A stretch of DNA of 64,000 nucleotides from Candidatus Micrarchaeota archaeon (GTDB lineage Archaea; Micrarchaeota; Micrarchaeia; Anstonellales; JAHKLY01). The position numbers and the translations under genes were made by a program. The stretch lies in the NCBI GenBank assembly GCA_020854825.1, contig JAHKLY010000002.1:31487-95486 (forward strand). The letters run 5' to 3'. The notes beneath the pieces were generated by a model. That model made no database searches. It saw only the letters and a list, made by a program, of their open reading frames with translations, and had not been told where the DNA came from. Position 1 is the stretch's first letter. Each line of letters begins with the position of its first letter. Shown piece by piece: positions 3,945 through 61,724 of this stretch.

Positions 3945-6900
3945 TTGTGTATGTCTAATATTATAAAAAATATATTTTTAGTAGCATTTGTTTTAATTGT
4001 ATTTAGTTTTGGCATTGTAAATGCTTGGGTTCCTCAATGTAGTGGAAATACATATGACTTTATTTGTGGAGATATAGTAGATGAAAGCTGTATAATGAAT
4101 GGTAATTTAACTTCTATAGGAACGTGTTTTACAGTATATGCAGACAATATTGTAATAGATTGTGATGGATATACAATCACAGGAAGTCAAACTGGATATG
4201 GAGTTTTAAATGACGGGTATGATAATGTTAGTATAAATGGATGTATAATACATGATTTTACAGTTGGAATACAATTTTATGATTCTACAATTGGATTAAT
4301 TTATAATAATACTGTTTATGATAATAATAATGGAATTACATTAGATAATAGTTCCTTAATTAATGTTTCTGGTAATGATGTATATGGTCATGATTATGGT
4401 ATTTCTTTAATAGATGGATCAAATAATAACACAGTAGCAGATAATAGTGTGAATGGCAATGACTTTGGTATTTATTTAACTATTAGTCCTGGTAATAATC
4501 TAACTAATAATTTTGTATGTAGAAATTCAGAAGTAGATGTATATGATAATGAATTTCCAAATAATAATTGGGCTAGAACTATATATTCCTCATCAGACCC
4601 AAATAATTCAACTTATTTTGCACAAGTAGGGGATTGTTCTTTTGAACAAGGAGTATGTGGACAATTTATAAATGAAGATATAGTATTAACTGAAGATATA
4701 GAATGTACTGAAGAAGGAATAGGAGATTCCGGAATTGTAGTTGAAGCTGATAATATTACAATAGATTGTAATGGATATTCAATAATTGGTTTTATGGGTT
4801 CAGGGATTGGAGTTGAAGTTAGTGGTTATGATGGAATTACAATTATAAATTGCAACGTTTCAAATTTCCTGACCGGAATTTATGTTGAAGATTCTATAGG
4901 TACTGAAGTTTATGACAGTATAATATATTACAATGGTATGTTGGGGCCCGATATGACTGGAATTCATTTCTATAATGTGAATTATTCAGCCATATATAAC
5001 AACTTAGTTCATGAAAATGATATTGGAATTGTTCTTGAAGATTCATACGAAAATGAAGTTTATGAAAATGAAGTGTATGATAATCTATTCCAAGGCATAC
5101 ATCTTGTAAATTCTGAACATAATGTGATTTATGATAATCACATATACTGGAATGCTGACATTGGTTTGTACATTTTAAATTCAACTAACAACTTGTTTGA
5201 AAATAATACAGTTTGCACTAATAGGTTATCTGATATTCTTTTTAGGGGGACAAGCGAAGGAAATGAAGGAGACAATACCTGCAATGTTCTTGATGATACT
5301 GAGGAAGATATGAACATGGAAGTAACTTGTTCAATTACTTGTCCATATTATGGCAATTGCGGTGATGAAATTGACGGAGATATTGTTTTAGCAAGGGATA
5401 TTGAAGATTGCGAAGACGGTTTAATAGTAACCACAGATAACATTGTAATTGACTGTAATGGATATAGAATTTATGGTGATGGAATAAATGGCGGAATAGG
5501 AATTTTAGTTGATAGTTTGGATAATATAACAATAAAGAATTGCACTATCAAATATTTCGGGGTAGGTATTGCTTTGTTTAATTCTAATTCCAGCACACTT
5601 ATGAGCAATTATATGGATTCCAATGGTATGGGTGGAGAAACCGGAATCTATATGTTTAATAGCAATTATACAACAGTTGAAAACAATTTAGTTGAAAATG
5701 ATGACGGCACGGGCATAAACCTGGAATTTGGGTTTTTGAATACTCTTACCAATAACACTTTGTTAAACAATCTTTATGGTATCTATTTAATATCTAGCCA
5801 CAATAATACTTTGACAGATAATACTGCGAATGAAAATGTATTCGGAATTGATTTAGGTAATTCTGCAAACAATACATTATCTGGAAACACTGCAAATAAA
5901 AATATAGTAGTAGGGGTTTATTTAACTGGTACGAGTACTAACAATTACTTAATTGAGAATACTGTAAATCAAAACATAGGTGAAACTTATGGAATATTAT
6001 TATCAGAGGGAGCAGATGAAAATACCTTAATAAACAATACAATAATTGGCAATACTGCGGGTATGAACGTAGGTTCTTTAAATAATACATTAATAGACAA
6101 TTTCGCTTGTGCAAATATTGTTGATATTATTGATTATACTGATGGAAATGATTGGACAAGAACAACTTATACTTTCTCTGATCCAGTGAACACAACATAT
6201 TTTGATCAATTAGCCACTTGTCCATTTATTCAAGGTTTATGCGGACAGACAGTAACTGAAAGTGTAACTTTAACAGAAGACATTGTTTGCGAAGAAGGGG
6301 ATATATTTAGTCCCCGGCCTACTGCATTGGTAATCGGGGCAAATAACCTCACAATTGACTGTGATGGAAACTATTTAATCGGATATGCAGATTATGCAGG
6401 AATTTTATCATCTGGATACAATAATACTGAAATAATAAATTGTGATATTTCAGGATTCTTTTACGGAATCTATTTTGAGGACTCAAACAATTCAATTGTA
6501 GAGGATTCAAATCTTCATGAAAATATGTGTGAGGGAATGTATATCTACTCTTCCAGTGAGGACCCATATCATGCATACGTTTATGATACAGTTTTTGAAG
6601 ATAATTATCAAGAATGTGTACTGACTGGATTGTATTTATCTTCGTCCACATTATTTATGTGGAACAGTGAATTCATAAATAATGGAGAATATGGGTTATA
6701 CGAGGAGTTTAGGGGCATTCCAGATACTGTTTATTGGACCATAGATGATTATGCATATTGCAAGGACAACGGAATTTATATCAGCACAGCAGACGGTTAC
6801 ATAACTTTTGATGAAGGTGTTTTGGAAATAGATAACTGTACAATTGAGATATATAACAGAGAAACAGAAACATGGGCAATATGGTCTATAGAAGGTAACA

Positions 6901-7670
6901 TGACTGATTATATACCAGAAAGAGAAGTTGAAGCAAATGAATCTGAAGAATTTGTGTTTGAAAATTCAGATGCAATAATAACTTTAGAATTAAATGAAAC
7001 AACAAATATTTCATTCTTTGTTGGTTTATTAAATGCAGGTCAATTAGAAGCATTAGGAGATTCTCCAACAGGATTAATTCCATTCAAAGGAATAAATGTA
7101 GAAATTAATGAAAATGAAATAAATGGTACTATAACAATTTGTATTACCTATACTGATGATGAATTAGATGATGCAGGAATAGAAGAAGATACATTAGTTA
7201 TGTATTATTTCAATGAAACATCTGATGAATGGGAAATAATAACTCTCCAAAGGCAAGGGTCAAATAGAGTATGTGCAGAAATACCACATTTCAGTATATA
7301 TGCATTATTTGGTGAAAAAACTGAAGAAGATGGAGGCTCACCTAGAGGAAGCAGTTATACTGGTGGCGGTGCAAGACCAGTAGGACAGAGTCCAATAACA
7401 ACTGAAGAAGAAGAGGAAGAATTACAAATAGATGAAGAAGAATTAGAAGAAGAAATAATAGTACCAGAAAAACCAAGTGAAGAAATACCAGATGAAAAAC
7501 CAATAGATACAACTAAACCATATGTACCTCCAACAATTGAAGAACAACAAGAAGAAAGTGATTTTACAGGTATATATATTGTTGCAGGAATAATTATAAT
7601 TGCAGGAATAATATACTGGTGGATGACAGCAGCAAAAGCAGGTAAAAAAGGATTAATGAGATTTAAATAA
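3945..7670 (+). CDS. large cell-surface protein with parallel beta-helix (NosD/pectate-lyase-like) repeats, acidic linker and C-terminal TM anchor
   Basis: Signal peptide. Repeated I(D/E)CNGY(T/S/R)I(T/I/Y)G and N-x-(I/V)-x-x-N repeat units typical of right-handed beta-helix proteins. Two long internal module duplications (WARTIYSSSDPNNSTYFAQVGDCSFEQGVCGQ / WTRTTYTFSDPVNTTYFDQLATCPFIQGLCGQ). E/P-rich spacer. C-terminal hydrophobic helix plus basic tail (..IIYWWMTAAKAGKKGLMRFK). Confidence 0.7.
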   Translation: MCMSNIIKNIFLVAFVLIVFSFGIVNAWVPQCSGNTYDFICGDIVDESCIMNGNLTSIGTCFTVYADNIVIDCDGYTITGSQTGYGVLNDGYDNVSINGCIIHDFTVGIQFYDSTIGLIYNNTVYDNNNGITLDNSSLINVSGNDVYGHDYGISLIDGSNNNTVADNSVNGNDFGIYLTISPGNNLTNNFVCRNSEVDVYDNEFPNNNWARTIYSSSDPNNSTYFAQVGDCSFEQGVCGQFINEDIVLTEDIECTEEGIGDSGIVVEADNITIDCNGYSIIGFMGSGIGVEVSGYDGITIINCNVSNFLTGIYVEDSIGTEVYDSIIYYNGMLGPDMTGIHFYNVNYSAIYNNLVHENDIGIVLEDSYENEVYENEVYDNLFQGIHLVNSEHNVIYDNHIYWNADIGLYILNSTNNLFENNTVCTNRLSDILFRGTSEGNEGDNTCNVLDDTEEDMNMEVTCSITCPYYGNCGDEIDGDIVLARDIEDCEDGLIVTTDNIVIDCNGYRIYGDGINGGIGILVDSLDNITIKNCTIKYFGVGIALFNSNSSTLMSNYMDSNGMGGETGIYMFNSNYTTVENNLVENDDGTGINLEFGFLNTLTNNTLLNNLYGIYLISSHNNTLTDNTANENVFGIDLGNSANNTLSGNTANKNIVVGVYLTGTSTNNYLIENTVNQNIGETYGILLSEGADENTLINNTIIGNTAGMNVGSLNNTLIDNFACANIVDIIDYTDGNDWTRTTYTFSDPVNTTYFDQLATCPFIQGLCGQTVTESVTLTEDIVCEEGDIFSPRPTALVIGANNLTIDCDGNYLIGYADYAGILSSGYNNTEIINCDISGFFYGIYFEDSNNSIVEDSNLHENMCEGMYIYSSSEDPYHAYVYDTVFEDNYQECVLTGLYLSSSTLFMWNSEFINNGEYGLYEEFRGIPDTVYWTIDDYAYCKDNGIYISTADGYITFDEGVLEIDNCTIEIYNRETETWAIWSIEGNMTDYIPEREVEANESEEFVFENSDAIITLELNETTNISFFVGLLNAGQLEALGDSPTGLIPFKGINVEINENEINGTITICITYTDDELDDAGIEEDTLVMYYFNETSDEWEIITLQRQGSNRVCAEIPHFSIYALFGEKTEEDGGSPRGSSYTGGGARPVGQSPITTEEEEEELQIDEEELEEEIIVPEKPSEEIPDEKPIDTTKPYVPPTIEEQQEESDFTGIYIVAGIIIIAGIIYWWMTAAKAGKKGLMRFK

Positions 7671-23397: not shown

Positions 23398-24570
23398 TTG
23401 ACAACAGATAAAAAAATAGAGTATTGGTTTAAATTAACATATGATGCAGACGCAAAAACTAGATTAAAAGCTGCAAAGGAACTATCAGAATATCCAGAAT
23501 CTCCAACAGCTGTTTTTGCTATTTATGAATTGACTTATGATAAAGATGAAAAAGTAAAACAATTAGCTAAAGATATAATTAATTCTTGGAAAGAAGAAGA
23601 CGAAGAAATAATTCCATTAGGTGAAATATTAGCTGAAAAAATGAAAAAAGTTGAAGAAGGCACAGTAAAAGATGAAGAAAGAGATGAAAGAATAAAAGAA
23701 ATTAAGAAAAAATTAATGCCTTCGTTAGAAAATTATTTCAAATCAGAGGATACTAAAAATAAATTAATGCCTTCGTTAGAAAAGCTTTTTGAAAGGTTAG
23801 TAGAATTAGAAACTAAAGGACATCAAACATTTGAAAAGAAAAGATTAGTTGAAGAAAAATCAGAACAAGAAACACAAAAGAGTTTGTTTGATGAAGATGA
23901 AGAATTAGAGATGCCTCCAGAATATAGGGAATATTTAGATACATTATCACAGATTGATAGAATTGCGTTTTCGTCAGCACCTTCTTCAAAAGGAAAGAAA
24001 AAAATAAAAATCAAAAAGATTAAAGAGCATAGAGATAAAGAGGAAGTAGAAGAAATGCTTGAAGAAGTAGAAGAAGAAACTGAAGAAGAAGAAAAAATAC
24101 CTACTGCAGATATTTTTGAAAGGACAATTTATAAAAAAGCATTTAAATTACAAACAACTCCAGGTATTACACAGAGTCTAATAAATCAAGAGATGAAACG
24201 AACAATACATGAATATTCATTGAAGATTAAGTCCGCATTTTCATTAGCTAAATTAAGATCCACACGTAATGAAATAGATAAAATATCAGATTTAGAAAAA
24301 GGTATGAAAAATATATATACTGCTGCTTTTAAAGTTGAAGAAGTTGAAAATAAAGAAATTAAAAGAGGAACCAGAACTTCAAATTATTTAAGAATAGTAT
24401 TATCTGATAAATCTGGAAAATTCCCCGTTTTTATTTGGAAAGGAAGGGGCAGAGGGATATATGAAAATGAATATATTAAATTAGAAAATGCATTTGTAGA
24501 TGAATATCCAGAAATAGGTGAAATTGCACTTTCAATAGATAAAAAAGGAAAAATAATTGTTATAAAATAA
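23398..24570 (+). CDS. hypothetical protein: N-terminal HEAT-like repeats, E/K-rich low-complexity middle, OB-fold-like C-terminus
   Basis: TTG start. KAAKELSEYPESPTAVFAIYELTYDKDEKVKQLA HEAT-like pair. Short tandem KLMPSLE repeat. C-terminal beta-rich segment. Confidence 0.35.
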   Translation: MTTDKKIEYWFKLTYDADAKTRLKAAKELSEYPESPTAVFAIYELTYDKDEKVKQLAKDIINSWKEEDEEIIPLGEILAEKMKKVEEGTVKDEERDERIKEIKKKLMPSLENYFKSEDTKNKLMPSLEKLFERLVELETKGHQTFEKKRLVEEKSEQETQKSLFDEDEELEMPPEYREYLDTLSQIDRIAFSSAPSSKGKKKIKIKKIKEHRDKEEVEEMLEEVEEETEEEEKIPTADIFERTIYKKAFKLQTTPGITQSLINQEMKRTIHEYSLKIKSAFSLAKLRSTRNEIDKISDLEKGMKNIYTAAFKVEEVENKEIKRGTRTSNYLRIVLSDKSGKFPVFIWKGRGRGIYENEYIKLENAFVDEYPEIGEIALSIDKKGKIIVIK

Positions 24571-34832: not shown

Positions 34833-35951
34833 ATGAAAATACCAAATATTTATGAACAAGATTACAAAAAACTAATGGTTCTTCCAATTCTATTAATTAT
34901 AATTTCGTTATTTTTTATACCTCAAATCAAAGTAGGAATTGATTTTAAAGGAGGCACTATAATTACATTATATTCAGATTATACAATACAAACAGAAAAT
35001 TTAGAAAATGATTTATTACAAGCAGGAATTAGTTTACATTCAGTAAAACAATTTAAAACCACATTAGGAAATGTAGTTGAAATTGAAATTGAAAATGAAG
35101 AATTAATATATGAAGCAGAACAATTAAGATCTGATTTTTCAAATATTTTTGAAAATGTTTCAAGACTTGAATCATATGTTGCACAAACAAATGGGGAAAA
35201 TCAAACTATAATTAATGAATATACTAATGAAAGAAGCAAAGCAGATAAAATTGCAAATAATTTATTTAAGTTATCTGGTTATACCGAAAAAACAGCAGAA
35301 CAAGCAGAATCAACAAATGAATTGAAAAGTTTAGTAACTAAAGCGTATCTGAATATAAAATCTGATTATGAAGATAAATTAGATAGTATATTAAAAAGTA
35401 ATGTTAATTACTCTTCTATAACAGTAGATATTGTTTCACCCTCTCTAAGTTCTAAATTTATTGAAAAAGCAACGTTTGTAACAGTAATTGCAATAGTTTT
35501 TGCTGTTATACTTTCATTTATTGTTTTTAGAGATATTATGCCAAGTTTACTTGTATTAACTGGTGCAGCAGCAGATATTATTATTTGTTTAGGTGCTATG
35601 GGGTTATTTCAAATTCCATTTACTTTGCCTTCATTTGCGGCATTATTAATGATGTTAGGGTTTTCACTAGATACAGATATGCTTTTAACTATGAGAATGT
35701 TAAAACAACATGAAGGAACACCAAAAGAAAGAGCATATGAAGCAATGAAGACAGGTGCAACAATGAGTTTAACTGATTTTATTGCATTTGTAGCATTATT
35801 TGTTCTTGCAATAATGACAAATATATCAACATATTATGAAATTTCTGCAATAGCAATTTGTGGATTAATAGGAGATATAATTGCAACATGGTTATTTAAT
35901 GCAGTTATATTACTAATATATTTAGAAAAAACAAAAAAGGTGTATATATGA
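34833..35951 (+). CDS. secF: protein-export membrane protein SecF
   Basis: GIDFKGGT motif after TM1, periplasmic domain, C-terminal 5-TM bundle. Overlaps the downstream secD-like gene. Confidence 0.65.
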   Translation: MKIPNIYEQDYKKLMVLPILLIIISLFFIPQIKVGIDFKGGTIITLYSDYTIQTENLENDLLQAGISLHSVKQFKTTLGNVVEIEIENEELIYEAEQLRSDFSNIFENVSRLESYVAQTNGENQTIINEYTNERSKADKIANNLFKLSGYTEKTAEQAESTNELKSLVTKAYLNIKSDYEDKLDSILKSNVNYSSITVDIVSPSLSSKFIEKATFVTVIAIVFAVILSFIVFRDIMPSLLVLTGAAADIIICLGAMGLFQIPFTLPSFAALLMMLGFSLDTDMLLTMRMLKQHEGTPKERAYEAMKTGATMSLTDFIAFVALFVLAIMTNISTYYEISAIAICGLIGDIIATWLFNAVILLIYLEKTKKVYI

Positions 35952-37513
35952 GTTTTTCAAGTTTAATTAGAGATAAAAGAGTAATTGCATTGTTTATATT
36001 TACATTATTAGCTATTAGCATAGCTTATTTTGGCGGATTAAAATTTGGTATTGATTTTAGTGGGGGTACAAGAATTCCTGTTATACTTGAAAGACCGGTT
36101 TCAACAGAAGTCATGGATCAAATGATTGAGACTATTAAAACAAGAGTAAGCACTTTTGGTTTAACTGAAATTAAAGTTAGGGCCAGAGGGGATGATGAAA
36201 TAATTGTAGAAATTCCAAGTTATGACGATCAGACTGTAAGACAAACAATAGAAATATTAGAAAGACAAGGAGTATTTTTAGCAGTTTTTGATGGAAAATC
36301 TGCACTCAAAGGGAGTGAAATTTATACTGGTTCCATAGTTCAAATTCCAGCAGAAAGATCCGGTTGGTGGTCTGTTAGTGTTTCTGTATCAAATGCTGCA
36401 TCAACAAAGTTTGGAGAAGTTTCAGAAGGAAAAGCAGGATACCCAATTTATATGTTTTTAGATAGGCCTTCAGACGCATCTATATTTATTACAAAAGAAC
36501 ATTTAGTACAAGATACGGAGTTATCTACTGAAGATGCAATAACAATGCTTAATGATGCATTAAGATTAGAAGGTAATTCAATTGGTTTATATTTAATTGA
36601 CGCTTTTGATAATTATAAAGAAGATTTAACTCCAATTTCAAATACTTCAAAAGCAATAATTTCTAAAGAAACATCTAATGAAATTAAACAAGAATTAAGA
36701 GATAAGGGATTTATTTTAATTGAAAAGGAGGATAAAGATTTATATCCCAAATATTCAATATCCACAACACATAATACTGTTGTTAAATGGGATGCAATTG
36801 GACTAGTATCAGTTCCTTATTTAAGTCCTTCGTTAGCAGGGGGCCCAGCATCACATAGAGGAACATATGCTATTTCTGGACCTGGAGAAGGGAATACAGT
36901 TCAAGAGATGAATTTTAATGCTCAGTTAAAAGCAAGAGAGATGCAATCAATACTCAAAGGAGGATCATTACCTGTAGGTATATCAGTTGGAAGTAAAACC
37001 TCAATTCCAGCCCCATTAGGGTCTAAGTTTTTAGAATGGAGTGCAATTGGAGGATTAGTGGCATTATTAATAATAAGTTTAGTGGTAAGTATAAGATATA
37101 TGGATTTTAAATTAGTATTTCCAATATTAATTGTTTCATTAGCACAAATAACCATTTTAGTTTGTATAATTGGGTATTTTACAATTGATTTGGGTGCATT
37201 TGCAGGTCTAATCGCAGCAGTAGGTACTAGTGTTGATGAACAAATTGTTATTACAGATGAATTAATGAAAAAAGATGGTTCTGATGTTAGGACTAAACTA
37301 AAGCGTGCTTATGCAATTGTTACAAGGTCAAGAGCAATTATTATTGTTGCAATGCTTCCTTTGTTATTATTTTCAGGATTAGTAGAAATTATTGGTTTTG
37401 CAACATCTACAATCTTAGGTGCATTTTTAGGAGTATTATTAGCAAGGTATTCATATGCAGCATTTGTTGAACATTTAATTTTGAAAAAGAAAATACCTTC
37501 TGAAAAAAAGTAA
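35948..37513 (+). CDS. secD: protein-export membrane protein SecD
   Basis: GIDFSGGT motif, large periplasmic domain, C-terminal 6-TM domain. 521 aa. Confidence 0.65.
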   Translation: MSFSSLIRDKRVIALFIFTLLAISIAYFGGLKFGIDFSGGTRIPVILERPVSTEVMDQMIETIKTRVSTFGLTEIKVRARGDDEIIVEIPSYDDQTVRQTIEILERQGVFLAVFDGKSALKGSEIYTGSIVQIPAERSGWWSVSVSVSNAASTKFGEVSEGKAGYPIYMFLDRPSDASIFITKEHLVQDTELSTEDAITMLNDALRLEGNSIGLYLIDAFDNYKEDLTPISNTSKAIISKETSNEIKQELRDKGFILIEKEDKDLYPKYSISTTHNTVVKWDAIGLVSVPYLSPSLAGGPASHRGTYAISGPGEGNTVQEMNFNAQLKAREMQSILKGGSLPVGISVGSKTSIPAPLGSKFLEWSAIGGLVALLIISLVVSIRYMDFKLVFPILIVSLAQITILVCIIGYFTIDLGAFAGLIAAVGTSVDEQIVITDELMKKDGSDVRTKLKRAYAIVTRSRAIIIVAMLPLLLFSGLVEIIGFATSTILGAFLGVLLARYSYAAFVEHLILKKKIPSEKK

Positions 37514-51753: not shown

Positions 51754-52710
51754 TCAATATTCAACAATAAAGCTTTCACATCCTTGTGGTTCTACCCACA
51801 TCCCAAATAAAAATAGTTTTGCATACCCAACATATGGAATTCTTAATATCACAATTCCCTTTGATTGTTGTTTTGATACAAGTGAATTACCCCTTTGATA
51901 TGTGGAAGAATGCATTTGTAAGTCAAAAATAGCATTATTATCTCCTTTTATTAAATAGTATTCACCTTGCGGTGAATTTATTTTTAAATAGACTCTATGG
52001 ATTATATCTCCAGTTAAAGCAAATAAATCCTCTTTTTTTGGTTCATAAACCATTATATCATTAGTTTTATTTAATTCATATATTTTTTCTTTGAATTCTA
52101 TATTTTTTACACAAATAGTATTAATATTAGATTTGTCTTGATACTCTCTTTTACAAGTTCCATAATTAAATTTTAATGGCCCATGCATTTCGTAATATTT
52201 TTCAGGATATATTTTAAAGTCTGTACAAAAATCAGTATTTTTATCTAAACAATATACAAATATTGATCCATTTAGGCCATATGTATTTCCTTCAATTTCT
52301 ATGATTGCTGTATTATTTATGTCATTTATATTTTCAACATATATGCTGGGAGCATTAATTTCTTGTTCTCCTTTTAATATGATCAGATCTCCTCTTTCAT
52401 AGTCAGGTAACATACTACAAGATACTATTGCATTTATAGGAATAGAAGTACCTAATAAAAATACAAGTCCAAACCATATACTTAAAGCTAATACAATGGC
52501 TATGACAATTTCTTTTATTTCATTTTTCATTCCTTTTTTAATTGTTCCTTTAACAATATCCATACCTACTATTAACAGAATGGATGATCCTCCTAAAACC
52601 GCAAAAATAACATGTCTAGTAAGTAGATATAATAAAAAAGAAATAATAAGCAGGATATAATGTAAATAATATTTTTCAATAACATCTATTTTTTTTAATA
52701 TTTTTTTCAT
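51754..52710 (-). CDS. signal peptidase I (S26/Sec11-like) with extended C-terminal domain
   Basis: SCSMLPDYERGDLIIL resembles the catalytic-Ser box SGSMEP...GDL. N-terminal TM helices. Confidence 0.5.
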   Translation of the reverse strand: MKKILKKIDVIEKYYLHYILLIISFLLYLLTRHVIFAVLGGSSILLIVGMDIVKGTIKKGMKNEIKEIVIAIVLALSIWFGLVFLLGTSIPINAIVSCSMLPDYERGDLIILKGEQEINAPSIYVENINDINNTAIIEIEGNTYGLNGSIFVYCLDKNTDFCTDFKIYPEKYYEMHGPLKFNYGTCKREYQDKSNINTICVKNIEFKEKIYELNKTNDIMVYEPKKEDLFALTGDIIHRVYLKINSPQGEYYLIKGDNNAIFDLQMHSSTYQRGNSLVSKQQSKGIVILRIPYVGYAKLFLFGMWVEPQGCESFIVEY

Positions 52711-53647: not shown

Positions 53648-54871
53648 ATGAAAGGAATTCTTATACTATCTGTAGATAGGGATAATGATTTATTTGAGAA
53701 AGCTAAGATATCCGGTCCAATTATAGGCAGGGAAGCAAACTTAAATGCAGCGAATAAATTAGCGTTAGCAGATCCTCAGGATACAGATGCAAATGCTATT
53801 TTTCAAGCAGTTAAAAAGTATGATGAATTAGGAAAAGATTATGAAGTTCAAATAGTTACTTTAACTGGGAATAAGAAACTAGGGTATGAAGCAGATAAAA
53901 CAATTGCTAATCAATTAGATAAAATATTGCAAGGGTCTTCTTTTACTTCTTGTGTTTTAGTTACAGATGGTCAACATGATGAAGAGATTATTCCAATTCT
54001 TAAATCTAGAATTAAAATAGATTCAGCTCAAATTGTAGTTATGAAACAAGCAAAAGAATTAGAGAAAACATATGTAGTTTTATTAGAAAAATTAAAGGAT
54101 CCATATTACGCAAGAATTATTTTAGGAATTCCTGCGTTATTACTTATAATGTTTGCTTTAAGTAGTTATATGAATTGGGGATGGGAACCAGTAGCAATTG
54201 TTATTGCATTATTTCTTTTAATGAGATTATTTGGGATTGATGAATATATAGTTTCAACTTCAAGACATTTTAATTTTTCAGTAGAGAATAGTAGTTTTGT
54301 GATATATTTATCTGCATTTGCAATAATACTTGTTTCATTTTGGACAACCTATCAAACATATTCAATAAATTTTATGGAGTTTGATGCAGTTAAAATTCTA
54401 GGTATGAGTTTACAATCTTTAATGAGATTATTACCTTGGGGATTATTATTATTAGTTATAGGAAAAGTATTTGATGCATATAAAGAAGGAAAAAAGATAA
54501 AAATAACAAAATACGGGGCATATATGACTTCAATTATGTTATTTTGGTTAATATTTTCAGTAGGTGCAGATTGGGTTGTTAATATTTCTCCACCTTATGT
54601 TTCATTTGGAGATTTTATTTTAGTAATTTTGATAAGTTTAATTTTGGGGTATATATGTATTTATGTAATACATAAGATAAAAGTAGATATTGTATCAAGA
54701 CTTAAACTTGAAGATAAAGAAGTTATAAATGAATATGGATCTTTTATAGGAACTGTAGTTGGGGTAGATAAGAAGAAATCTATATTAATAGTTCAATCTC
54801 CTTTTGGACAAAAGAAAAAACTTAATTTTGATTTGATATCTGAAGTTAATGAAAGAATAATAGTCAAATGA
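53648..54871 (+). CDS. archaeal membrane protein (DUF373-like: soluble N-domain + multi-TM C-domain)
   Basis: ILILSVDRDNDL N-terminus then about 7 TM helices. The family assignment is from memory. Confidence 0.4.
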   Translation: MKGILILSVDRDNDLFEKAKISGPIIGREANLNAANKLALADPQDTDANAIFQAVKKYDELGKDYEVQIVTLTGNKKLGYEADKTIANQLDKILQGSSFTSCVLVTDGQHDEEIIPILKSRIKIDSAQIVVMKQAKELEKTYVVLLEKLKDPYYARIILGIPALLLIMFALSSYMNWGWEPVAIVIALFLLMRLFGIDEYIVSTSRHFNFSVENSSFVIYLSAFAIILVSFWTTYQTYSINFMEFDAVKILGMSLQSLMRLLPWGLLLLVIGKVFDAYKEGKKIKITKYGAYMTSIMLFWLIFSVGADWVVNISPPYVSFGDFILVILISLILGYICIYVIHKIKVDIVSRLKLEDKEVINEYGSFIGTVVGVDKKKSILIVQSPFGQKKKLNFDLISEVNERIIVK

Positions 54872-54877
54872 TTTATT

Positions 54878-55858
54878 TTAAATTAATTTTATTAATCCCC
54901 TGCCTATTTCTGCTAAATCCGCACCTAACATCATAGCAAATGAACGTATAAAGGTATAAGTAATAATTAATGCTATTACTGGTGAAATAAATATTCTCAA
55001 TAATATTGCAAAAAAACTACTTTCAAAAAACATTCCAAGTATTGTTTGATAATCAATACTCATTGCCATGTTCTTAATTAAACTTGCAGTTGCTATATTA
55101 TTACCAATACATAATTCTTCTAACATTTTATTATACTCATCTAGATTTTCAATTTCAAATGCTTCTAAGGATTCTGATGTACTACCTGATACAAAAAGAG
55201 TCATTAAAAAAGCAGAGGGAAGCACAATTGCAAAACCTAATCCCATAGCAATAAACATTGCTCCTACACCCCTAGTTGGAGGAAATGCTCTTAATATAAT
55301 ACCCATGGGTAATATTATTACTGCTAGATAATCTCCAAATTTCATTACCTCAACAAAAAAATACATCCACATTACAAATATCCCTAATACGTTTATTATC
55401 CAAGTGAATGTTCCGATAATTGTATTTGGGAGTGAGGCTGCACCAGGAATAAATGTTTTACTTAATAATCCTCCCATATCAGTTCCTATTATTGAAATTT
55501 CTTTACCAAATGCAAAAAAGAAACCTGCACTAAATACATTTCTATATGTTTTTTTAATTGGCCCCAATATTTTATAAACTTCAAAAACTGCGGCATTAAC
55601 AGGGTCTGAACCAAGTACTGGTGCAGTTGAAGTTGTATGTGTTAATTCATTTGAAACTTCTTGGGTTAAATAAAGCATACCTTGAATAAATCCTATAATT
55701 GCTAAAATTATAAATGCAGTTATTAAAATTTCCATATACTCACTTTTACACCATTTTTCTAATCCTTTTAAAGAAAATGCTCTCGCCATCATATAGAATA
55801 TAGTAATTCCCCCCAAGCAAAAAATTGCCAATATTAGAGTTAATATTATCCAATCCAT
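54878..55858 (-). CDS. paralog 6 of tandem polytopic membrane protein family (R-x-F-P-x-T-R motif)
   Basis: LPMGIILRAFPPTRGVGAMFIAMG motif. C-terminal MLGADLAEIGRGLIKLI. Its start overlaps the upstream gene's stop. Confidence 0.6.
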   Translation of the reverse strand: MDWIILTLILAIFCLGGITIFYMMARAFSLKGLEKWCKSEYMEILITAFIILAIIGFIQGMLYLTQEVSNELTHTTSTAPVLGSDPVNAAVFEVYKILGPIKKTYRNVFSAGFFFAFGKEISIIGTDMGGLLSKTFIPGAASLPNTIIGTFTWIINVLGIFVMWMYFFVEVMKFGDYLAVIILPMGIILRAFPPTRGVGAMFIAMGLGFAIVLPSAFLMTLFVSGSTSESLEAFEIENLDEYNKMLEELCIGNNIATASLIKNMAMSIDYQTILGMFFESSFFAILLRIFISPVIALIITYTFIRSFAMMLGADLAEIGRGLIKLI

Positions 55859-56979
55859 TATATCATCCGTGTTAGATTTGATAAATCTATTTGTTCACCA
55901 AAGAACCTTGAAAATTCTCTCATTGATGTTGCCAATATAGCAAAATTTAATAGGGGTAAAAATAAACTACCCAAAATATTAATTGCCAACATTTTCCAAG
56001 TTGCCATAGATAATGCACTAAACATTATTTTCATAGGTTCAATTATACCAATCTTAAAAGTTATTGGTGCACTTGTATGTATATTTCCATCAAACATATC
56101 TGCAGGACTATTAATATGTAGATTAATAAATTGATTTGCTTGCATTTGTTCTGCAACAAATTCAATAATTCCTTCCCACATTCCAAATACTCCAATACCT
56201 TGTAATGCGACACTATTAATAACTAAGAGCATAGGCCAAAATAAACCCAATGCAATTGTTAATCCAATAAGTGTTCCCCCAAACCTTCTTGTAGGTTCAA
56301 AGCATCTTAGTAATATGCCAATAGGCAGGTATATAGTAAACATTCCAGCATATACATAATTAAATAACATAAGTTGGGTTATAGATGTTACAAGCATTGT
56401 TATTATTCCTATTTGTGCTATTTCAAATACTCTATTTAAACTATTTAATCCCTTTCCAGGAGTAATGCCAATACCCAAACCTATAATATCCACTGAAAAT
56501 TTAAAATTTCCAATAGTTTCTCTTTGAATATTAAAGAAAAGTATGCTTGTTAAAGAAATAGTATTCATTCTCATAAGTGTGGTTAAATAATCTTTTGCTT
56601 CTACGACCATTGAGTCATCGCCAGCACCTAGAACATTACCAAAAATCATTTTAGGAGTTAAACCTCCAGAACATAAAATAAATTCTGAAAATCCAACAAT
56701 AACGAGCAATATTAATACAGTTGCACCAACTTGTAGCATTTCATATTTTGCCCATGTTTCACCTTTTTGTATTTGCATCCCCCTACATATAAGAAATATA
56801 ATTAATAGAATTAAAAGAGAAATCATTATTGCTATATAGCAAGTGACAGCCCATGAAGACATAAATGCATTCAAATCTCCCCCACAAACATCATCTGGAA
56901 ATATATCAAATAATGCAGAATGCGACAGATTAAATAGTAGAATTATGCATAGGATAAATAAGGGAATTTTTTTGATCAT
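55858..56979 (-). CDS. paralog 5 of tandem membrane protein family
   Basis: LPIGILLRCFEPTRRFGGTLIGLT. C-terminal FFGEQIDLSNLTRMI. Signal-peptide-like N-terminus. Confidence 0.6.
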   Translation of the reverse strand: MIKKIPLFILCIILLFNLSHSALFDIFPDDVCGGDLNAFMSSWAVTCYIAIMISLLILLIIFLICRGMQIQKGETWAKYEMLQVGATVLILLVIVGFSEFILCSGGLTPKMIFGNVLGAGDDSMVVEAKDYLTTLMRMNTISLTSILFFNIQRETIGNFKFSVDIIGLGIGITPGKGLNSLNRVFEIAQIGIITMLVTSITQLMLFNYVYAGMFTIYLPIGILLRCFEPTRRFGGTLIGLTIALGLFWPMLLVINSVALQGIGVFGMWEGIIEFVAEQMQANQFINLHINSPADMFDGNIHTSAPITFKIGIIEPMKIMFSALSMATWKMLAINILGSLFLPLLNFAILATSMREFSRFFGEQIDLSNLTRMI

Positions 56980-58181
56980 ATTAATTTCACCAATTCTGCT
57001 ACATTCATATCTGAACCTAAGAATTTTCCCATTTCTTGTATAAATGTAAATGTAATGAATATATTTAATGAAGGCAATATAAAACTACCTATCATTACTA
57101 GAAAAATACCTTCTTGGAGCATAATATAAAAGGCGTCCATATATAAATCACTAATTGCTCCAGCAACCATTGGATAAAGAAGCTGCCGATTTTTAAATAT
57201 AGTGGGAGTTCCACTTGTCATAAATTCTTTAAATGATTTATATAATGGATCTATTATGGCATTTGTAATTTCTCTACCTGGCCTATTAAGAGTAGGAGGG
57301 AAAGCATAGAAATGGTCTTGTGCATAATTTATCATTTCATAAGGATATACTCCAATATATGCAGACATTATTAAATTATTGAGATTAAGCATAATTGGAT
57401 AAACAAAATATAGGCCTAGTGCAAGGGCAATTAATCCCCCCCCTACAGAACGAGTAGTTGGAAAACTTCGCAATATTAATCCCAATGGTAAAAATAAAGC
57501 AAGCATTTTATCTGAAGTAAAACATAGAATAAACATATTACCAATCCAGCTTGTTATTGCAGGTAATAAAATAACCAAAGACCAATCAGTTAGTTTAGAC
57601 ACAATGCCAAACATTGAACCAAAATCATAATTAATTCCAATCATATTAAATGGAGTGAAATTAATTTCTATTGAGAATAACCCTTCTAAAAACATATTTA
57701 TAGTTAACATATGGTATCCTAAATGCATTAGTTCTGCAGCCATTGCTTCTGAATAATAATATGCAGTTTGTAATAAAGTGCACCCCGCATTTGGATCGCT
57801 TGGGTCAGAGTATCCACATAAAGTTACATCACAATCACCTACATTTTGACAAGAAGGGTTATTTAATTTTCCAATTTGATCTAAAGGCCCTATCAATGCA
57901 AGCAATAAAACAATAAGTATGAAGGATGCACTAACTTGCCAAATTTCATTTTTTCCCCATGCACTAATATTTGGAAGGTCCACTGCTTTTCCGATTAAAA
58001 ACACACAAACAGCAATCATAAATACAAGAAAAACTCCAGTAATAGATAGTACTAACCAGTTTAATGATGAATCTTGTAGTCCAATTGTTGGGCATGTTTG
58101 AGTCGGTTGTACTAAACTAAATCCTGTGATATTATTAATACAAAGGAAAAACATAATTACTAAAATTAATTTATTATTCAT
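56976..58181 (-). CDS. paralog 4 of tandem membrane protein family
   Basis: LPLGLILRSFPTTRSVGGGLIALA. C-terminal FLGSDMNVAELVKLI. Confidence 0.6.
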   Translation of the reverse strand: MNNKLILVIMFFLCINNITGFSLVQPTQTCPTIGLQDSSLNWLVLSITGVFLVFMIAVCVFLIGKAVDLPNISAWGKNEIWQVSASFILIVLLLALIGPLDQIGKLNNPSCQNVGDCDVTLCGYSDPSDPNAGCTLLQTAYYYSEAMAAELMHLGYHMLTINMFLEGLFSIEINFTPFNMIGINYDFGSMFGIVSKLTDWSLVILLPAITSWIGNMFILCFTSDKMLALFLPLGLILRSFPTTRSVGGGLIALALGLYFVYPIMLNLNNLIMSAYIGVYPYEMINYAQDHFYAFPPTLNRPGREITNAIIDPLYKSFKEFMTSGTPTIFKNRQLLYPMVAGAISDLYMDAFYIMLQEGIFLVMIGSFILPSLNIFITFTFIQEMGKFLGSDMNVAELVKLI

Positions 58182-58189
58182 TTTTTCAC

Positions 58190-59437
58190 CTATAAGAAAT
58201 GTGATAATCCTGCAATTGATGCATCTCCTCCAAAAAATGGAGCCATTGTTTTTATTGAAGCTAAAATAGCGAATAATACAAGTAAAGGTATAATAACAGT
58301 TAGCATAGCAATTTTACCAATCATATGTAAGATACCGTCTATTTCAAGAGCCATATTCTGTCCTTTAAGATGCATAAGAAGATATGCATCAGAAATCGAA
58401 AAAACTCTATTATAATATTCAGTAAATCCTTTACCTATATTTTTAAGCGATTCAAGAGGATGAAGAAAATCAAAATGTGCATTTTCAAAATCAAATTGAG
58501 GTAACAAACTTGCACTTCCTTCAGTCATAAAATCAGCATAAGGCAGTAGTTTTTGTCCAGTCAAAGAGGTCTGTAATCCTATAAAGTTTCCTGATTCAAA
58601 CATTGCCCTATGGCCAATAATATATGGTAATGGAGCAATATAATACAGGCTAAGAGATGTAGCTATTAAAAACCCCCCCAATTTTCTAGTAAATTCAAAA
58701 CTTCTAAATACAAATCCACTAATTAATAAAACTGGAAATAAAACTTGTGCTACTATATCTACTGCATTTTTTTGAATTATATTAATAATTAAAGAATGTG
58801 ATAAAAGTTTGAATGCTTTAGCATACATTCCAAATTCTACTGAATATCCTACTCCCGGCATAATTTTTAGTATTTCTGGAAGCAACAAGAAAGGAGGTTT
58901 AGGCGCAATTACGTATCCTTGTAATAAAAATTTAAAAGATGAAAAAAAGCTTAATTGTTGGTATAATAATAACATTTGTGTCATTGTTTCTGATATCAAC
59001 CATTCTGTTCTATCTAAAAATGATAGTGTTACACATATATGAGGAGCGTAATTTCTGCCTACTACTTCAAATCCTTTTTTTGTATATAAACACTTTCCAT
59101 CTGGATTTAATGCAACACCTGCCTCTTGCATAGTCAAAGTATTGGATAATATTAAATCAATATTTGGAGTTGTATCTATTGAAGAATATGGATCTAATTG
59201 CACAATTCCTTTGGGGATGATTTCGTTATCTATAATTGGTATTGCAACAACGACAATCAAAAAGAAAAAGAATAGATTTAGAATGACTTGCCCATATTCA
59301 GTTTTTGCCTTTGCTCTTAAAGATTCGTCTTGTAATATAAATGAAAATAAATGTATTAGAACATAAATTCCAAGCATAATTAAAGATAGTACAAATGTAA
59401 GCAAAAGCCCCTGTGTTTGTAATTCTATAGGTATCAT
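58190..59437 (-). CDS. paralog 3 of tandem membrane protein family
   Basis: FPVLLISGFVFRSFEFTRKLGGFLIATS. C-terminal FFGGDASIAGLSHFL. Confidence 0.6.
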   Translation of the reverse strand: MIPIELQTQGLLLTFVLSLIMLGIYVLIHLFSFILQDESLRAKAKTEYGQVILNLFFFFLIVVVAIPIIDNEIIPKGIVQLDPYSSIDTTPNIDLILSNTLTMQEAGVALNPDGKCLYTKKGFEVVGRNYAPHICVTLSFLDRTEWLISETMTQMLLLYQQLSFFSSFKFLLQGYVIAPKPPFLLLPEILKIMPGVGYSVEFGMYAKAFKLLSHSLIINIIQKNAVDIVAQVLFPVLLISGFVFRSFEFTRKLGGFLIATSLSLYYIAPLPYIIGHRAMFESGNFIGLQTSLTGQKLLPYADFMTEGSASLLPQFDFENAHFDFLHPLESLKNIGKGFTEYYNRVFSISDAYLLMHLKGQNMALEIDGILHMIGKIAMLTVIIPLLVLFAILASIKTMAPFFGGDASIAGLSHFL

Positions 59438-60390
59438 TAATCAAACCTCTGTATTAAGAATTTTTGAAAACTATTTATAAAAGATACTGTTATTGCCATA
59501 CTTATTGTAGGTAAAAATAATCCCTGCATTAAAACAACTGACAGCATTATAAATCCATTAAATATTTCATATAGTTTTGGCTCTATTACTTGAAATGTTT
59601 TTCCCCAAGCACCTGTAAATGCATCAAATGTTGTGCTATTTGGTATTTCATCAAATATTATTTGAGTTATTGAAATCATGAAGTTATCTTGTATATCTGA
59701 AACAATATTTTCAACTATTGCTGCGTGGATTACATATGAAAATGGAAAAACAATATAAAATCCAATTGCAACTGCGATTAAAAATGAACCTGAATTTCTT
59801 GTAGTTGGAAATATTCTTAAGAAAATTCCGATTGGCAATACAAAAGGAATCATTATTGCTTTTATAATTGATAATGCAAATTGTTGTATTGCTAAACTTG
59901 CATAAAATGGACTCATTAAAGCAAATACTTTATCTAATGCTTTTGTTAAAGTACTTAAATCAAACGGAGGAAAGGTAACGTCTGCTCTTATTGGAATTCC
60001 TATCAAGGCTACTCCAGGTATGTCATTTAATCCTATCTTTATATTTATTTTAGTTAATATATCCATTCCCACCCTCCCATAGAATACAGATTTCATAGTT
60101 CCAAATGTATCAACAAGTAGGTTTTCTAAATATTCTAAAGATATAGTAAATGGGTCATTTCCAATTAATTGAGTGCTTATTTCAAATAATCCTTGTATTC
60201 CAAATATAATAAATAACAAAATAGCAATAGATACCAATATCTGATATAATTCCATTCTTGCAAAAATTTCAAATTCTTTATTATTTAATAATTTAGAAAG
60301 CAAATAAGAAATTGCAGTTAATGCTACCATAATCATTAAAGGTACGATAGAAAGTTGCAATGCAGTTATAAATGCTTGATCAAATGCCAT
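59437..60390 (-). CDS. paralog 2 of tandem membrane protein family
   Basis: LPIGIFLRIFPTTRNSGSFLIAVA. Stop/start overlap with neighbours. Confidence 0.6.
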   Translation of the reverse strand: MAFDQAFITALQLSIVPLMIMVALTAISYLLSKLLNNKEFEIFARMELYQILVSIAILLFIIFGIQGLFEISTQLIGNDPFTISLEYLENLLVDTFGTMKSVFYGRVGMDILTKINIKIGLNDIPGVALIGIPIRADVTFPPFDLSTLTKALDKVFALMSPFYASLAIQQFALSIIKAIMIPFVLPIGIFLRIFPTTRNSGSFLIAVAIGFYIVFPFSYVIHAAIVENIVSDIQDNFMISITQIIFDEIPNSTTFDAFTGAWGKTFQVIEPKLYEIFNGFIMLSVVLMQGLFLPTISMAITVSFINSFQKFLIQRFD

Positions 60391-60391
60391 A

Positions 60392-61663
60392 TTATCCCAA
60401 CTTTAATTTTTCAATTCCAAATATTTTTGTTTCTCCTCCTAAAATTCCAGAGATATTTGCAAATAAGGTTAAACAAATAATAACATCCATAAAAAAACAA
60501 ATAGCAATAAAAATAAACTTCTGTAAAACTTGATTTGCTAAAGCGGCTGTGTAATGAATTGGTTCAGCTGCAAATTCACTTAAATTAATGCCTAATGCAG
60601 CACCAGCAAGTGCAGTTGTTAATTTGGATAATTTACTTAAGGTTCCAAATAATAAATTGTTTATTGTATTGCTAATTACTTCTCCTGCTCTTATCACAGA
60701 TCTTCCAATATATGCAAAAAAGTTTTTTATTTTATCACCTAAATTTGAATTCCAATTAGTTTCTTCGTTTATATCATTTATATTATCTGTTAATGAACCA
60801 AATTCATCAATTAATATATCTCCCCCTTCAGGATAATGTTCATCCATTTTTTCCTGCATTTTTGTTTCATCTTCAAGTTTTTGTTCTAATCTTTCTTCTA
60901 ATAATGCAACAGAAATTGGATCCTCATTATCATATGATAAACCACCTAAGAACATATTGACATATATATATTGATTAAATAAAATAGTCATTGGAAAAAT
61001 GAAATAAAAAGTAATTGCTAATGCAATTAATGTAGAACCTAATCTTCTTGTTATGGGTAATGCGCGTAATATTATCCCCAATGGGAAAAATATTGTGAAT
61101 GAAGTTATTTTAATAAAATCCAATATGGAATCCATTACAGATACTAAAAAGTTTGTCATAATAACAGTTTTAGTTATATCTCCAATCATATCTGCAACTA
61201 TATTCAATCCTGCTAATGGTTGCATGCTTACACTCACTACAAAACCAACAAGACCCCCCATAGGTATGGGAACTCCAAATGTTATTCCATATTTAGAATA
61301 ACCAGATAAAATTGCACTAGTTCGTACTCCTCTTTCCGCAATATTTTGTAGATTTAAATCCAGTACTTTTAGAAACACTTTTCCTTGTGTAAAATATACG
61401 GGATCGTTTATATCTAAAGGTCCTGAATAACCTATTAATGCATAACATACTAATAATACCACATAATGAAGTAAAAACATCCCAAGAAAAACTATTAATA
61501 CAGAATAAATCAATTCTTTAAATTCTTTTTGTGCCCAGCCTTTTAATTGAGGAAATCCTCCCAAAGTAGATATTAAATATGCAAATAAAGCACCGCCTAG
61601 ACTTATCATTAATCCTATAAATACTAGTACATATGCTTGTGAACTAAATACCATATAATTCAT
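60392..61663 (-). CDS. paralog 1 (first gene) of tandem membrane protein family, with acidic insertion
   Basis: FPLGIILRALPITRRLGSTLIALA motif. E/D-rich insertion (EERLEQKLEDETKMQEKMDEH). C-terminal FGIEKLKLG. Confidence 0.6.
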   Translation of the reverse strand: MNYMVFSSQAYVLVFIGLMISLGGALFAYLISTLGGFPQLKGWAQKEFKELIYSVLIVFLGMFLLHYVVLLVCYALIGYSGPLDINDPVYFTQGKVFLKVLDLNLQNIAERGVRTSAILSGYSKYGITFGVPIPMGGLVGFVVSVSMQPLAGLNIVADMIGDITKTVIMTNFLVSVMDSILDFIKITSFTIFFPLGIILRALPITRRLGSTLIALAITFYFIFPMTILFNQYIYVNMFLGGLSYDNEDPISVALLEERLEQKLEDETKMQEKMDEHYPEGGDILIDEFGSLTDNINDINEETNWNSNLGDKIKNFFAYIGRSVIRAGEVISNTINNLLFGTLSKLSKLTTALAGAALGINLSEFAAEPIHYTAALANQVLQKFIFIAICFFMDVIICLTLFANISGILGGETKIFGIEKLKLG

Positions 61664-61724
61664 TTAATTGTGTTAAATATATAAAGGTTTATTTATCGGG
61701 CATTTATAAAGAAATAGTATAAAT

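Follow-up and report, generated by a model that had tools for sequence, protein, structure and literature searches.

The window analysed in this work is a stretch of 64,000 nucleotides (nt) from the genome of a Candidatus Micrarchaeota archaeon (contig JAHKLY010000002.1 of assembly GCA_020854825.1, positions 31,487 to 95,486). On its minus strand, between positions 54878 and 61663, open reading frame (ORF) calling gives six consecutive genes, P0001 to P0006. This six-gene array is the subject of the present work, together with the family of membrane proteins that it encodes and the pilin and ATPase genes, similar to those of type IV secretion systems (T4SS), that accompany the family in the phylum. 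The coordinates of all these features are collected in Table 1. The six genes follow each other very closely, with overlaps of 1 nt at positions 55858 and 59437 and of 4 nt at 56976-56979, and with gaps of 1 nt at 60391 and of 8 nt at 58182-58189. These coordinates, lengths and junctions are the same as in a preliminary description of this DNA, which was made without database searches. The TATA-like string in front of the first gene is weak evidence, since such strings are common at a GC content of 28%.

Table 1. Coordinates of the six genes, of their putative partners and of other features discussed in the text. Positions without a prefix are those of the window; G000 is the genome from which the window was taken, C a contig and L a locus. 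aa, amino acid residues; TM, transmembrane helix.
Feature	Position	Strand	Length and remarks
P0001, position 1, first of array	60392..61663	-	423 aa; 5-TM core
P0002, position 2, shortest subunit	59437..60390	-	317 aa
P0003, position 3	58190..59437	-	415 aa
P0004, position 4	56976..58181	-	401 aa; signal-peptide-like N-terminal segment
P0005, position 5	55858..56979	-	373 aa; signal-peptide-like N-terminal segment
P0006, position 6, last of array, minimal core subunit	54878..55858	-	326 aa
Candidate archaeal TATA-like box TTTATATA	61678..61685	-	15-22 nt upstream of first ATG
Second array, B-type, six genes	G000:C3:77389-84671 (L009:9390-16672)	+	same genome, diverged
Secreted protein directly after B-type array	L135:673-5595		1640 aa; 5.6% Cys; N-terminus resembles signal peptide or lipobox
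Further ORF after the 1640-aa protein	L135:5580 to beyond 8999		>1140 aa
VirB2/T4SS_pilin-like gene	G000:C7:29814-30287	+	contig end
VirB2/T4SS_pilin-like gene, partial	G000:C7:30344-30598	+	cut by contig end
VirB2/T4SS_pilin-like gene	G000:C3:274014-274448	-	contig end
FtsK/HerA/VirB4-class ATPase, single in genome	G000:C4:61226-62797		524 aa
SecF and SecD genes	34833-35951 and 35948-37513	+	window; about 17 kb from array
DUF373 membrane protein	53648-54871	+	convergent with array end

The six proteins have pairwise sequence identities of only 14-23% in the alignment, which makes them distant but clear paralogs. The relationship claimed in the preliminary description is therefore real in spite of the low identity, and it is also seen in residues that are invariant in all six proteins: E47, G196, R200, T205, R206, G209, I213 and P224 in the numbering of P0001. 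A profile made from the six sequences recovers its own members with E-values from 1e-98 to 1e-127. The paralogy is far beyond chance, because the family has many members elsewhere: at E <= 1e-3, its profile matches 3161 cluster representatives out of 1.84 billion. Two of the earlier statements on the shared motifs went too far. The core motif had been called nearly invariant, but it is only conserved, reading LISGFVFRSFEFTR in P0003 and RALPITRRLGS in P0001. A conserved C-terminal tail had been ascribed to each protein, but it is absent in P0002 and likewise in 22 of the 22 position-2 orthologs examined.

The proteins also have features of their own. P0001 has a long acidic or coiled insert after the fourth transmembrane helix, and its C-terminal tail ends in ...GGETKIFGIEKLKLG. 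Position 3 shows the strongest conservation of the core motif of all six positions (FFTRKLGGLLIA type). P0004 contains a Cys-containing ecto-loop and the core motif LPLGLILRSFPTTRSVGGGLIALA, while the C-terminal tail of P0005 is FFGEQIDLSNLTRMI. No match was found for any of the six proteins in Pfam or NCBIfam, and searches of the PDB with sequence profiles from two family alignments gave nothing meaningful. The homologs of P0002 in Micrarchaeia all carry the annotation 'hypothetical protein'.

According to the hydropathy, a core of five transmembrane helices (TM) is common to all six proteins. The core begins with TM1, a loop containing the W-A-K-x-E motif and TM2, which are followed by a variable region, TM3, the loop with the motif LP-x-G-I-x-L-R-x-F-P-x-T-R-x-x-G-G and TM4. 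A second variable region, TM5 and the C-terminal tail complete the chain. In P0004 and P0005 an additional signal-peptide-like segment precedes TM1. Several cues are available for the orientation of the chain in the membrane: the signal-peptide-like N-termini of P0004, P0005 and the proteins of the B-type array, the basic residues of the loops that connect TM1 with TM2 and TM3 with TM4, the Cys-rich insert after TM4 at position 3 of the B-type array, and a CARDB domain found in one insert. Since these cues agree, the N-terminus is predicted to be outside, with the variable TM2-TM3 and TM4-TM5 loops as ecto-loops, and the WAKxE, LRxFPxTRxxGG and C-terminal tail motifs would be located on the cytoplasmic side. 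VirB6 of A. tumefaciens crosses the membrane five times, from an N-terminus outside to a cytoplasmic C-terminus, and a large external loop separates TM2 from TM3. The topology predicted here from the hydropathy and the positive-inside pattern would agree with this.

Profile searches showed that the family is lineage-wide. It is present in each of the 41 genomes searched from this order, and in 178 of the 201 genomes sampled from the phylum. The named relatives that have it are Candidatus Micrarchaeota, Micrarchaeia, Anstonellales, Anstonellaceae, Bilamarchaeaceae, Burarchaeum and Gugararchaeum, with one record named 'ainarchaeum'. There are 12-18 family copies per genome, often in two or three arrays. 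The genome studied here has only 12 copies, all of them arrayed, and no solitary one; in relatives, solitary members were observed outside two arrays, one per relative (G014:C10:58410-59369, G006:C1:175214-176158 and G008:C1:392732-393700).

Twenty-two arrays were cut from 12 genomes. Every one of them has six tandem genes, no more and no fewer, whose junctions overlap or nearly abut and whose lengths follow a conserved pattern. Position 2 is short in all sampled arrays except one, where it has 834 residues, while enlargement is frequent at position 3 and reaches 1455 residues. The sample contains two array types, A (the type of the array in the window) and B, with 11 arrays each. In a tree built on 363 profile columns of the 22 arrays, each position forms a pure 22/22 bipartition, with support of 0.992 for position 1 (p1), 0.98 for p2, 0.936 for p3, only 0.60 for p4, 0.997 for p5 and 0.977 for p6. 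Signatures specific to a position, such as the absence of the tail at position 2, are also conserved. The six pure position clades in fixed order indicate that the sextet already existed before the array was duplicated and before the order radiated, and that the gene order has been frozen since. The sextet is ancient and its gene order is fixed. Such a frozen pattern of six positions is expected of six non-interchangeable subunits in one assembly.

It might also be supposed that the paralogs act separately, as interchangeable channel subunits or as variable surface receptors with specificities of their own, for example for different hosts, and that the tandem arrangement reflects nothing but the history of duplication. 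The ecto-loops are hypervariable in both length and sequence, in contrast to the conserved cytoplasmic motifs, and this would suit such receptors, as would the expansion to 12-18 copies per genome and the solo copies outside arrays. However, interchangeable genes are expected to be gained and lost, yet the 22 arrays all have six genes in the same order that belong to old position clades. The units of duplication are whole arrays and not single genes, and the overlapping stops and starts suggest a coupled, equimolar synthesis. We consider this explanation to be quite unlikely. The frozen orthology of the six positions and the coupled translation, as read from the genes, strongly suggest instead one hetero-oligomer of six.

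The fold of the proteins was assessed from AF2 models. The model of P0006, based on an alignment of 99 sequences, is all-helical, with a predicted local distance difference test score (pLDDT) of 81.5 and a predicted template modelling score (pTM) of 0.76; the pLDDT of the P0005 model is 71.5. The P0006 model was compared with 48,161 representative chains in an unbiased fold scan. Rank 1 was DotA of the Dot/Icm protochannel, with a Z value of 7.9 and 254 residues aligned, and rank 2 was TrwI/VirB6 of the R388 T4SS, with Z of 7.2 and 227/261 residues aligned. An unrelated fold came next (Z 6.3 over 149 residues), and the Z values of further folds were at most 6.3 with shorter alignments. In a second look at P0006 with VIA-align, TrwI/VirB6 was at the top with Z of 8.3 and a root-mean-square deviation (rmsd) of 6.0 Å over 232/272 residues (model residues 1-309 against chain residues 23-273), while the next fold had Z of 6.4. 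Foldseek placed TrwI/VirB6 among the top rows for both the P0005 and the P0006 models, and at the top for P0005, with non-significant E-values of 0.3-0.5. A first wide structural scan with the P0005 model, which is of lower quality, gave only generic helical hairpins in residues 34-110.

It is important to note that, according to the guidance of the structural tool, Z values below about 13 can correspond to a generic arrangement in helical bundles. The evidence from the fold is not conclusive by itself, because the Z values are modest for proteins of this kind. The ranking and the coverage of the matches to these models favour membership in a VirB6-like fold. A prediction of the complex of p5 (residues 36-373) with p6, in which ortholog alignments were used, had a score of 0.03 and provides no evidence either way.

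The preliminary description had also mentioned a transporter, and it is true that the proteins are polytopic and helical and that TTYH channels and ABC transporters appear in weak Foldseek rows. These features would be compatible with an ordinary transporter or permease for small molecules, for example of the ABC-2 or FtsX type, or with an ion channel. However, no Pfam or NCBIfam permease is matched at E <= 1, the arrays examined have no linked ABC ATPase or substrate-binding protein, and the TM-scores to those channels are 0.1-0.19. In addition, the ATPase that is linked to the family, described below, belongs to the FtsK/HerA/VirB4 class. No support was found for the transporter, and we regard it as very improbable. 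The TTYH channels, with TM-scores of 0.14-0.19, were dismissed.

Only one ATPase of the FtsK/HerA/VirB4 class is encoded in the genome. It scores above the Pfam cutoffs for AAA_10 and P-loop_TraG. Its best NCBIfam models are CedB (7.8e-20) and the VirB4-like CD1110 family (4.5e-17), followed by CedD, VirB4_plasma and TraC, and all of these are ahead of the HerA families. The longest PDB alignment is with the ATPase domain of VirB4 (4ag5, residues 58-340). The sequence identity of the ATPase across the class is 52-76%. A HerA-NurA repair helicase was considered and rejected: the upstream neighbour has no Pfam match, including NurA, and the CedB and VirB4 models outrank HerA. In this genome the ATPase module, with one protein of about 275 residues containing TM helices, is found on contig C4 (locus L141), separated from the arrays. 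This module (G000:C4:56000-68000) is flanked by a GT4 glycosyltransferase, a Polysacc_synt/MATE-like flippase and a GT1 glycosyltransferase, and a comparable pair of polytopic proteins is located upstream of the array in loci of the GTDB family f15. These flanking genes may indicate a link to the glycosylation of pilins or surface proteins. In one f15 genome (L138:3485-6628, G043:C2) the ATPase ORF has 1047 residues, about double the usual length, which suggests that the ~275-residue protein or a domain from upstream may be fused to it.

The second component that accompanies the family is a pilin. In f15, one to three small genes lie just upstream of the sextet, and they code for proteins with a signal peptide, two TM helices and a charged loop. 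The signal peptide followed by a two-TM hairpin is what characterizes a VirB2-type pilin in systems of the T4SS class. The genome studied here has three pilin copies, two full and one partial, where contigs C7 and C3 end. This suggests that the assembly breaks inside a tandem pilin cluster and that C7 and C3 may be neighbours. The pilin of 157 residues from this genome reaches 27.4 bits, against a cutoff of 26.6, with the T4SS_pilin family (PF18895), and the match covers model positions 3-70 of 71. In the pilin family, T4SS_pilin is matched by 7 of 8 members and TrbC/VirB2 by 3 of 8. The best PDB match of the pilin profile is TrwL, although it is not significant.

The occurrence of the sextet family, the ATPase, the pilin and a control gene was determined in the same set of 201 phylum genomes mentioned above. 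The ATPase and the pilin were each found in 177 genomes, one fewer than the sextet family. Both the sextet family and the ATPase occur throughout the GTDB families f1-f15, f18, f19, f21, f26 and f27, and neither of them was found in f16 (0/6), f20 (0/4), f22-25 and f28. In f17, 2 of the 10 genomes have the sextet family, and it is these two that also have the ATPase and the pilin. The patterns of the sextet family and the ATPase differ in one exception, a genome that is 89% complete. The pilin follows the same pattern by GTDB family, and there are only single-genome exceptions in the three-way match. The control, DUF373, is present in 199 of the 201 genomes, including the lineages without the system; the shared absence is therefore not an artefact of assembly or divergence.

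The gene order in several lineages connects these components directly. In f13, f14 and f15, one operon contains p1-p6, then two proteins with 2-3 TM helices and about 275 residues, and then the ATPase, followed by a small protein and one of about 255 residues; in f13 and f14 a protein of about 800 residues is added. The full order in f15 is pilins, p1-p6, the two ~275-residue TM proteins and the ATPase. Thus a VirB4-class ATPase is genetically linked to the channel-like proteins, as in systems of the T4SS class. In f19, f21 and f27 the pilin genes are direct neighbours of the ATPase, and they are located upstream of the family member in the f17 genome G156. The accessory proteins of about 275, 255 and 800 residues have no informative family match. 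The system is chromosomal and is inherited vertically across the class, and its arrays are flanked by housekeeping genes. No VirD4-type coupling protein (PF02534) was found in the 97.6%-complete genome. The marks of a conjugative T4SS, namely VirD4 and the location on a plasmid or an integrative and conjugative element, were not found, and no search was aimed at relaxases.

A minimal form of the system was found in the genus g95 of f17, represented by 2 genomes. It consists of one pilin gene, one family member of 314-335 residues and a TM protein of about 260 residues. In the genome G158 the ATPase is directly next, followed by a protein of about 650 residues, while in G156 the ATPase is outside the stretch examined. 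The solo family member of g95 (L148:9177-10121) scores alike on all six position profiles, for example 143 bits with p6 and 133 bits with each of p2 and p4. Judged from these scores, the solo form fits the state before the sixfold duplication, or an outgroup.

The B-type arrays have an additional feature of considerable size. They carry giant Cys-rich inserts at position 3; in this genome, the position-3 protein of the B-type array has 664 residues, with a Cys-rich insert after TM4 that contains many CPxEC/CxDC-like motifs. In 9 loci, as well as in this genome, secreted Cys-rich proteins of 1230-1640 residues are encoded on the same strand directly downstream of the B-type array. No Pfam domain was found in the giant inserts and the giant downstream proteins, with the exception of one CARDB. 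The giant Cys-rich proteins and the position-3 insert may form an external adhesin or tip structure.

These proteins raise the question of whether the arrays could be a lineage-specific platform for surface assembly or secretion that does not descend from a T4SS. Such a platform would anchor or export the giant Cys-rich proteins or a coat of S-layer or adhesin type, perhaps together with Sec/SecDF, and the likeness of the fold would then be generic. The position of the giant proteins directly after the B-type arrays is in agreement with this, and so are five loci of Anstonellaceae (L037, L043, L046, L047 and L050) in which SecF and SecD come directly after the array, here of A-type, on the same strand. 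The Z values in the range of generic matches and the lack of sequence similarity to VirB6 are also compatible with it. However, the giant proteins are found beside only one of the array types, and the adjacency of SecDF is restricted to these five A-type loci of a single GTDB family, f6. The phyletic pattern and the operon shared with VirB2-type pilins and a CedB/VirB4-like ATPase would be left unexplained, and the two top matches in the unbiased fold scan are both channel proteins of T4SS. This explanation is considered unlikely, though somewhat less so than separately acting paralogs.

In our opinion, the six genes probably code for VirB6-like channel or platform subunits of a chromosomal, Ced/Ted-like machine that is derived from T4SS and conserved in most Micrarchaeia. 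The comparison with Ced and Ted is made because these two systems have the same composition: a pilin of VirB2 type, a polytopic protein similar to VirB6 and an ATPase of compact VirB4/CedB-like type, all chromosomal and without a coupling protein. The other parts of the machine are likely to be the VirB2-type pilins, the CedB/VirB4-like ATPase of hexameric type, one or two of the ~275-residue proteins with 2-3 TM helices, and the ~255-residue and ~800-residue proteins. The preliminary description had suspected a VirB6/TrbL-type channel, which could serve contact or transfer between cells, and this suspicion is supported by DotA and TrwI/VirB6 as the top folds and by the co-occurrence and the operon with pilin and ATPase. 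The kinship to VirB6 is supported at the level of fold, topology and context only, and membership at the level of sequence was not found.

Several observations weigh against this interpretation. At the level of sequence, the Pfam family TrbL/VirB6 (PF04610) is not matched at E <= 1 by the six proteins or by the rest of the genome. The comparison of the 99-sequence family profile with a 20-sequence alignment of TrwI/VirB6 by hhalign gives a probability of only 0.1%, although the VirB6 profile is narrow (effective number of sequences, Neff, of 2.9), and with the single TrwI sequence the probability is 0.13%. At the level of structure, the Foldseek E-values are never significant, and the fold scores obtained with the models are modest, with Z of 7-8 and rmsd of 6-9 Å. 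The relationship between the pilin profile and TM1 of the family, although the two align in register, is weak (hhalign probability 19%, P = 0.0012). The NCBIfam scores of the ATPase are all far below the equivalog cutoffs, CedB for example reaching 71 bits against 700, and the canonical VirB4 Pfam domain CagE_TrbE_VirB was not found in the genome. The co-occurrence rests on few independent evolutionary events, since related genomes are not independent of each other. Finally, in this genome the array lies among housekeeping genes and not beside the pilins or the ATPase.

If the six genes do encode VirB6-like subunits, one copy of each paralog would most likely join with the others in the cytoplasmic membrane to form a pseudo-symmetric ring or platform. 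The conserved cytoplasmic face would dock the ATPase, and six subunits would match a hexameric ATPase. The diversified outer face would support the assembly of the pilus and, in the second array, also the giant Cys-rich secreted proteins. Such a machine may move DNA or other macromolecules between cells. We infer the hetero-oligomer and its stoichiometry, the docking of the ATPase, and the substrate and its direction from the features described above; by analogy, the candidates for the substrate are DNA, imported as in Ced and Ted, or host material taken up by the cell.

It is useful to compare the proposed machine with the systems that are already characterized. The Ced system of Sulfolobales and the Ted system of Thermoproteales import DNA, and they consist of a VirB6-like protein (CedA/TedA), a VirB2-like pilin (CedA1/TedC) and a VirB4-like ATPase (CedB/TedB) (PMC9905601). 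They are domesticated derivatives of T4SS with parts that are unrecognisable by BLAST, and the N-terminal hairpin of CedA resembles a pilin (PMC9905601). Like Ced and Ted, the system in Micrarchaeota is archaeal, chromosomal and vertically inherited and is not plasmid-borne. It has the same three core components, namely a pilin of VirB2 type, a polytopic protein similar to VirB6, and a compact ATPase of the VirB4-like kind, which has about 520 residues and CedB as its best NCBIfam model. No VirD4 coupling protein was found, and the components have diverged past recognition by BLAST. However, there is one CedA or TedA in Ced and Ted, while Micrarchaeota have six VirB6-like paralogs in fixed order, often in two or three arrays. 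The multiple pilin paralogs, the accessory proteins of about 275 (TM), 255 and 800 residues and the giant Cys-rich proteins at one array type are further differences, and the host is a genome-reduced DPANN archaeon. The assignment to the Ced system proper is not obtained, since CedB is the best match but stays below its equivalog threshold. As a lead only, a Micrarchaeota cluster in the ESM Atlas has CedA1 in 23% of its members, with a score of 0.87-0.89.

The structural alignments with TrwI/VirB6 and DotA are near full-length, and the VirB6 system is also encoded with a pilin and a VirB4-class ATPase. In contrast to VirB6/TrbL, the proteins here have no Pfam TrbL match and only the very low profile-profile probability given above. 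TrwI is a homo-pentamer that is located under the VirB5 tip in a diderm envelope, whereas no context of VirB5, VirB7, VirB9, VirB10 or VirB11 was seen here. The WAKxE, LRxFPxTRxxGG and C-terminal tail motifs are specific to the Micrarchaeota family.

The rvh T4SS of Rickettsiales has five tandem enlarged VirB6 paralogs, RvhB6a-e (PMC2653234). The preliminary description had drawn a comparison with Rickettsia, which is apt as an analogy but does not imply shared descent. Both systems have tandem diverged VirB6-type paralogs with large variable extensions in a reduced genome, with the other T4SS parts scattered, and the host of rvh is obligately host-dependent. However, the RvhB6 proteins have a recognisable TrbL/VirB6 Pfam domain, their number is five and not six, and the organisms are diderm bacteria and not archaea; the two expansions are independent.

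The chromosomal T4SS of Patescibacteria (CPR) is essential for epibiotic growth in Ca. Southlakia epibionticum, where its function was tested by Tn-seq, and uptake of host material is suspected (PMC12102498). The two systems have in common that they are chromosomal and lineage-wide and that they combine VirB2-like pilins with VirB6 and VirB4; Patescibacteria cells are ultrasmall and monoderm, with reduced genomes, and depend on a host. The differences are that the Patescibacteria system is bacterial, with a recognisable VirB4 nested in MPF-FATA and a single VirB6, while the Micrarchaeota system is known from genes alone. No T4SS-, Ced- or Ted-like system and no paralog array has been described for Micrarchaeota or DPANN in the literature covered (full texts, a 2025 review of T4SS, and Micrarchaeota genomics). 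The kind of system, as seen in T4SS, Ced and Ted, is known; the fixed-order module of six VirB6-like paralogs, its duplication into array types and its retention throughout the lineage in a DPANN phylum are new.

The surroundings of the array in the window are also of interest. The window is archaeal, as seen from the genes for PolD, PCNA, FttA, Csl4, RpoL and a ThrRS with an archaeal editing domain, and the DNA occurs in sludge metagenomes. The genome belongs to the Micrarchaeota (DPANN) and has 828,311 bp in 7 contigs with a GC content of about 28%, in keeping with the reduced archaeon that had been guessed beforehand. The two arrays together account for about 1.6% of it. A DNA-alkylation repair gene and TYW2 lie upstream of the array; downstream come DUF373, in convergent orientation, and then Csl4 and RpoL. 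The housekeeping genes that flank the arrays are Csl4, RpoL, PCNA, TBP, L21e and KsgA. DUF373 is probably unrelated to the system, because it is present in nearly all of the phylum genomes regardless of the system. An ORF of 318 residues (51754-52710, minus strand) has a faint Peptidase_S24-like match (E 0.0076); judged from this match, it could be a signal-peptidase-type protease with relevance to the processing of pilins. Two other uncharacterised ORFs were noted on the plus strand of the window, one of 1241 residues at 3945-7670 and one of 390 residues at 23398-24570, the latter with only a faint Med26/TFIIS-like match.

The system is unannotated in public databases, where the proteins are labelled hypothetical. 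With its pilins, six-paralog channel and VirB4-like ATPase, it is a concrete candidate for the apparatus by which minimal-genome DPANN archaea acquire material from other cells, and a plausible route for the exchange of DNA or other material with them. If the proposed interpretation is true, T4SS-derived systems of the Ced/Ted kind extend from Crenarchaeota into DPANN, and there is a parallel to the T4SS that is essential for the epibiosis of Patescibacteria. The arrays would also be a clean natural case of a homo-oligomeric channel subunit that diversified into six fixed, ordered paralogs. A more far-reaching scenario is advanced here tentatively, as one that we hold to be possible but less likely than the interpretation on which it is built. 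A homo-oligomeric channel of VirB6 type, which would persist as a single gene in one genus, might have given rise to an obligate ring of six different subunits, in number equal to those of a hexameric ATPase. With the pilins and the giant Cys-rich tip or adhesin proteins, it might serve in most Micrarchaeia as a conduit for DNA, nucleotides or other macromolecules from host or neighbour cells, and it would then be the archaeal counterpart of the T4SS of Patescibacteria epibiosis.

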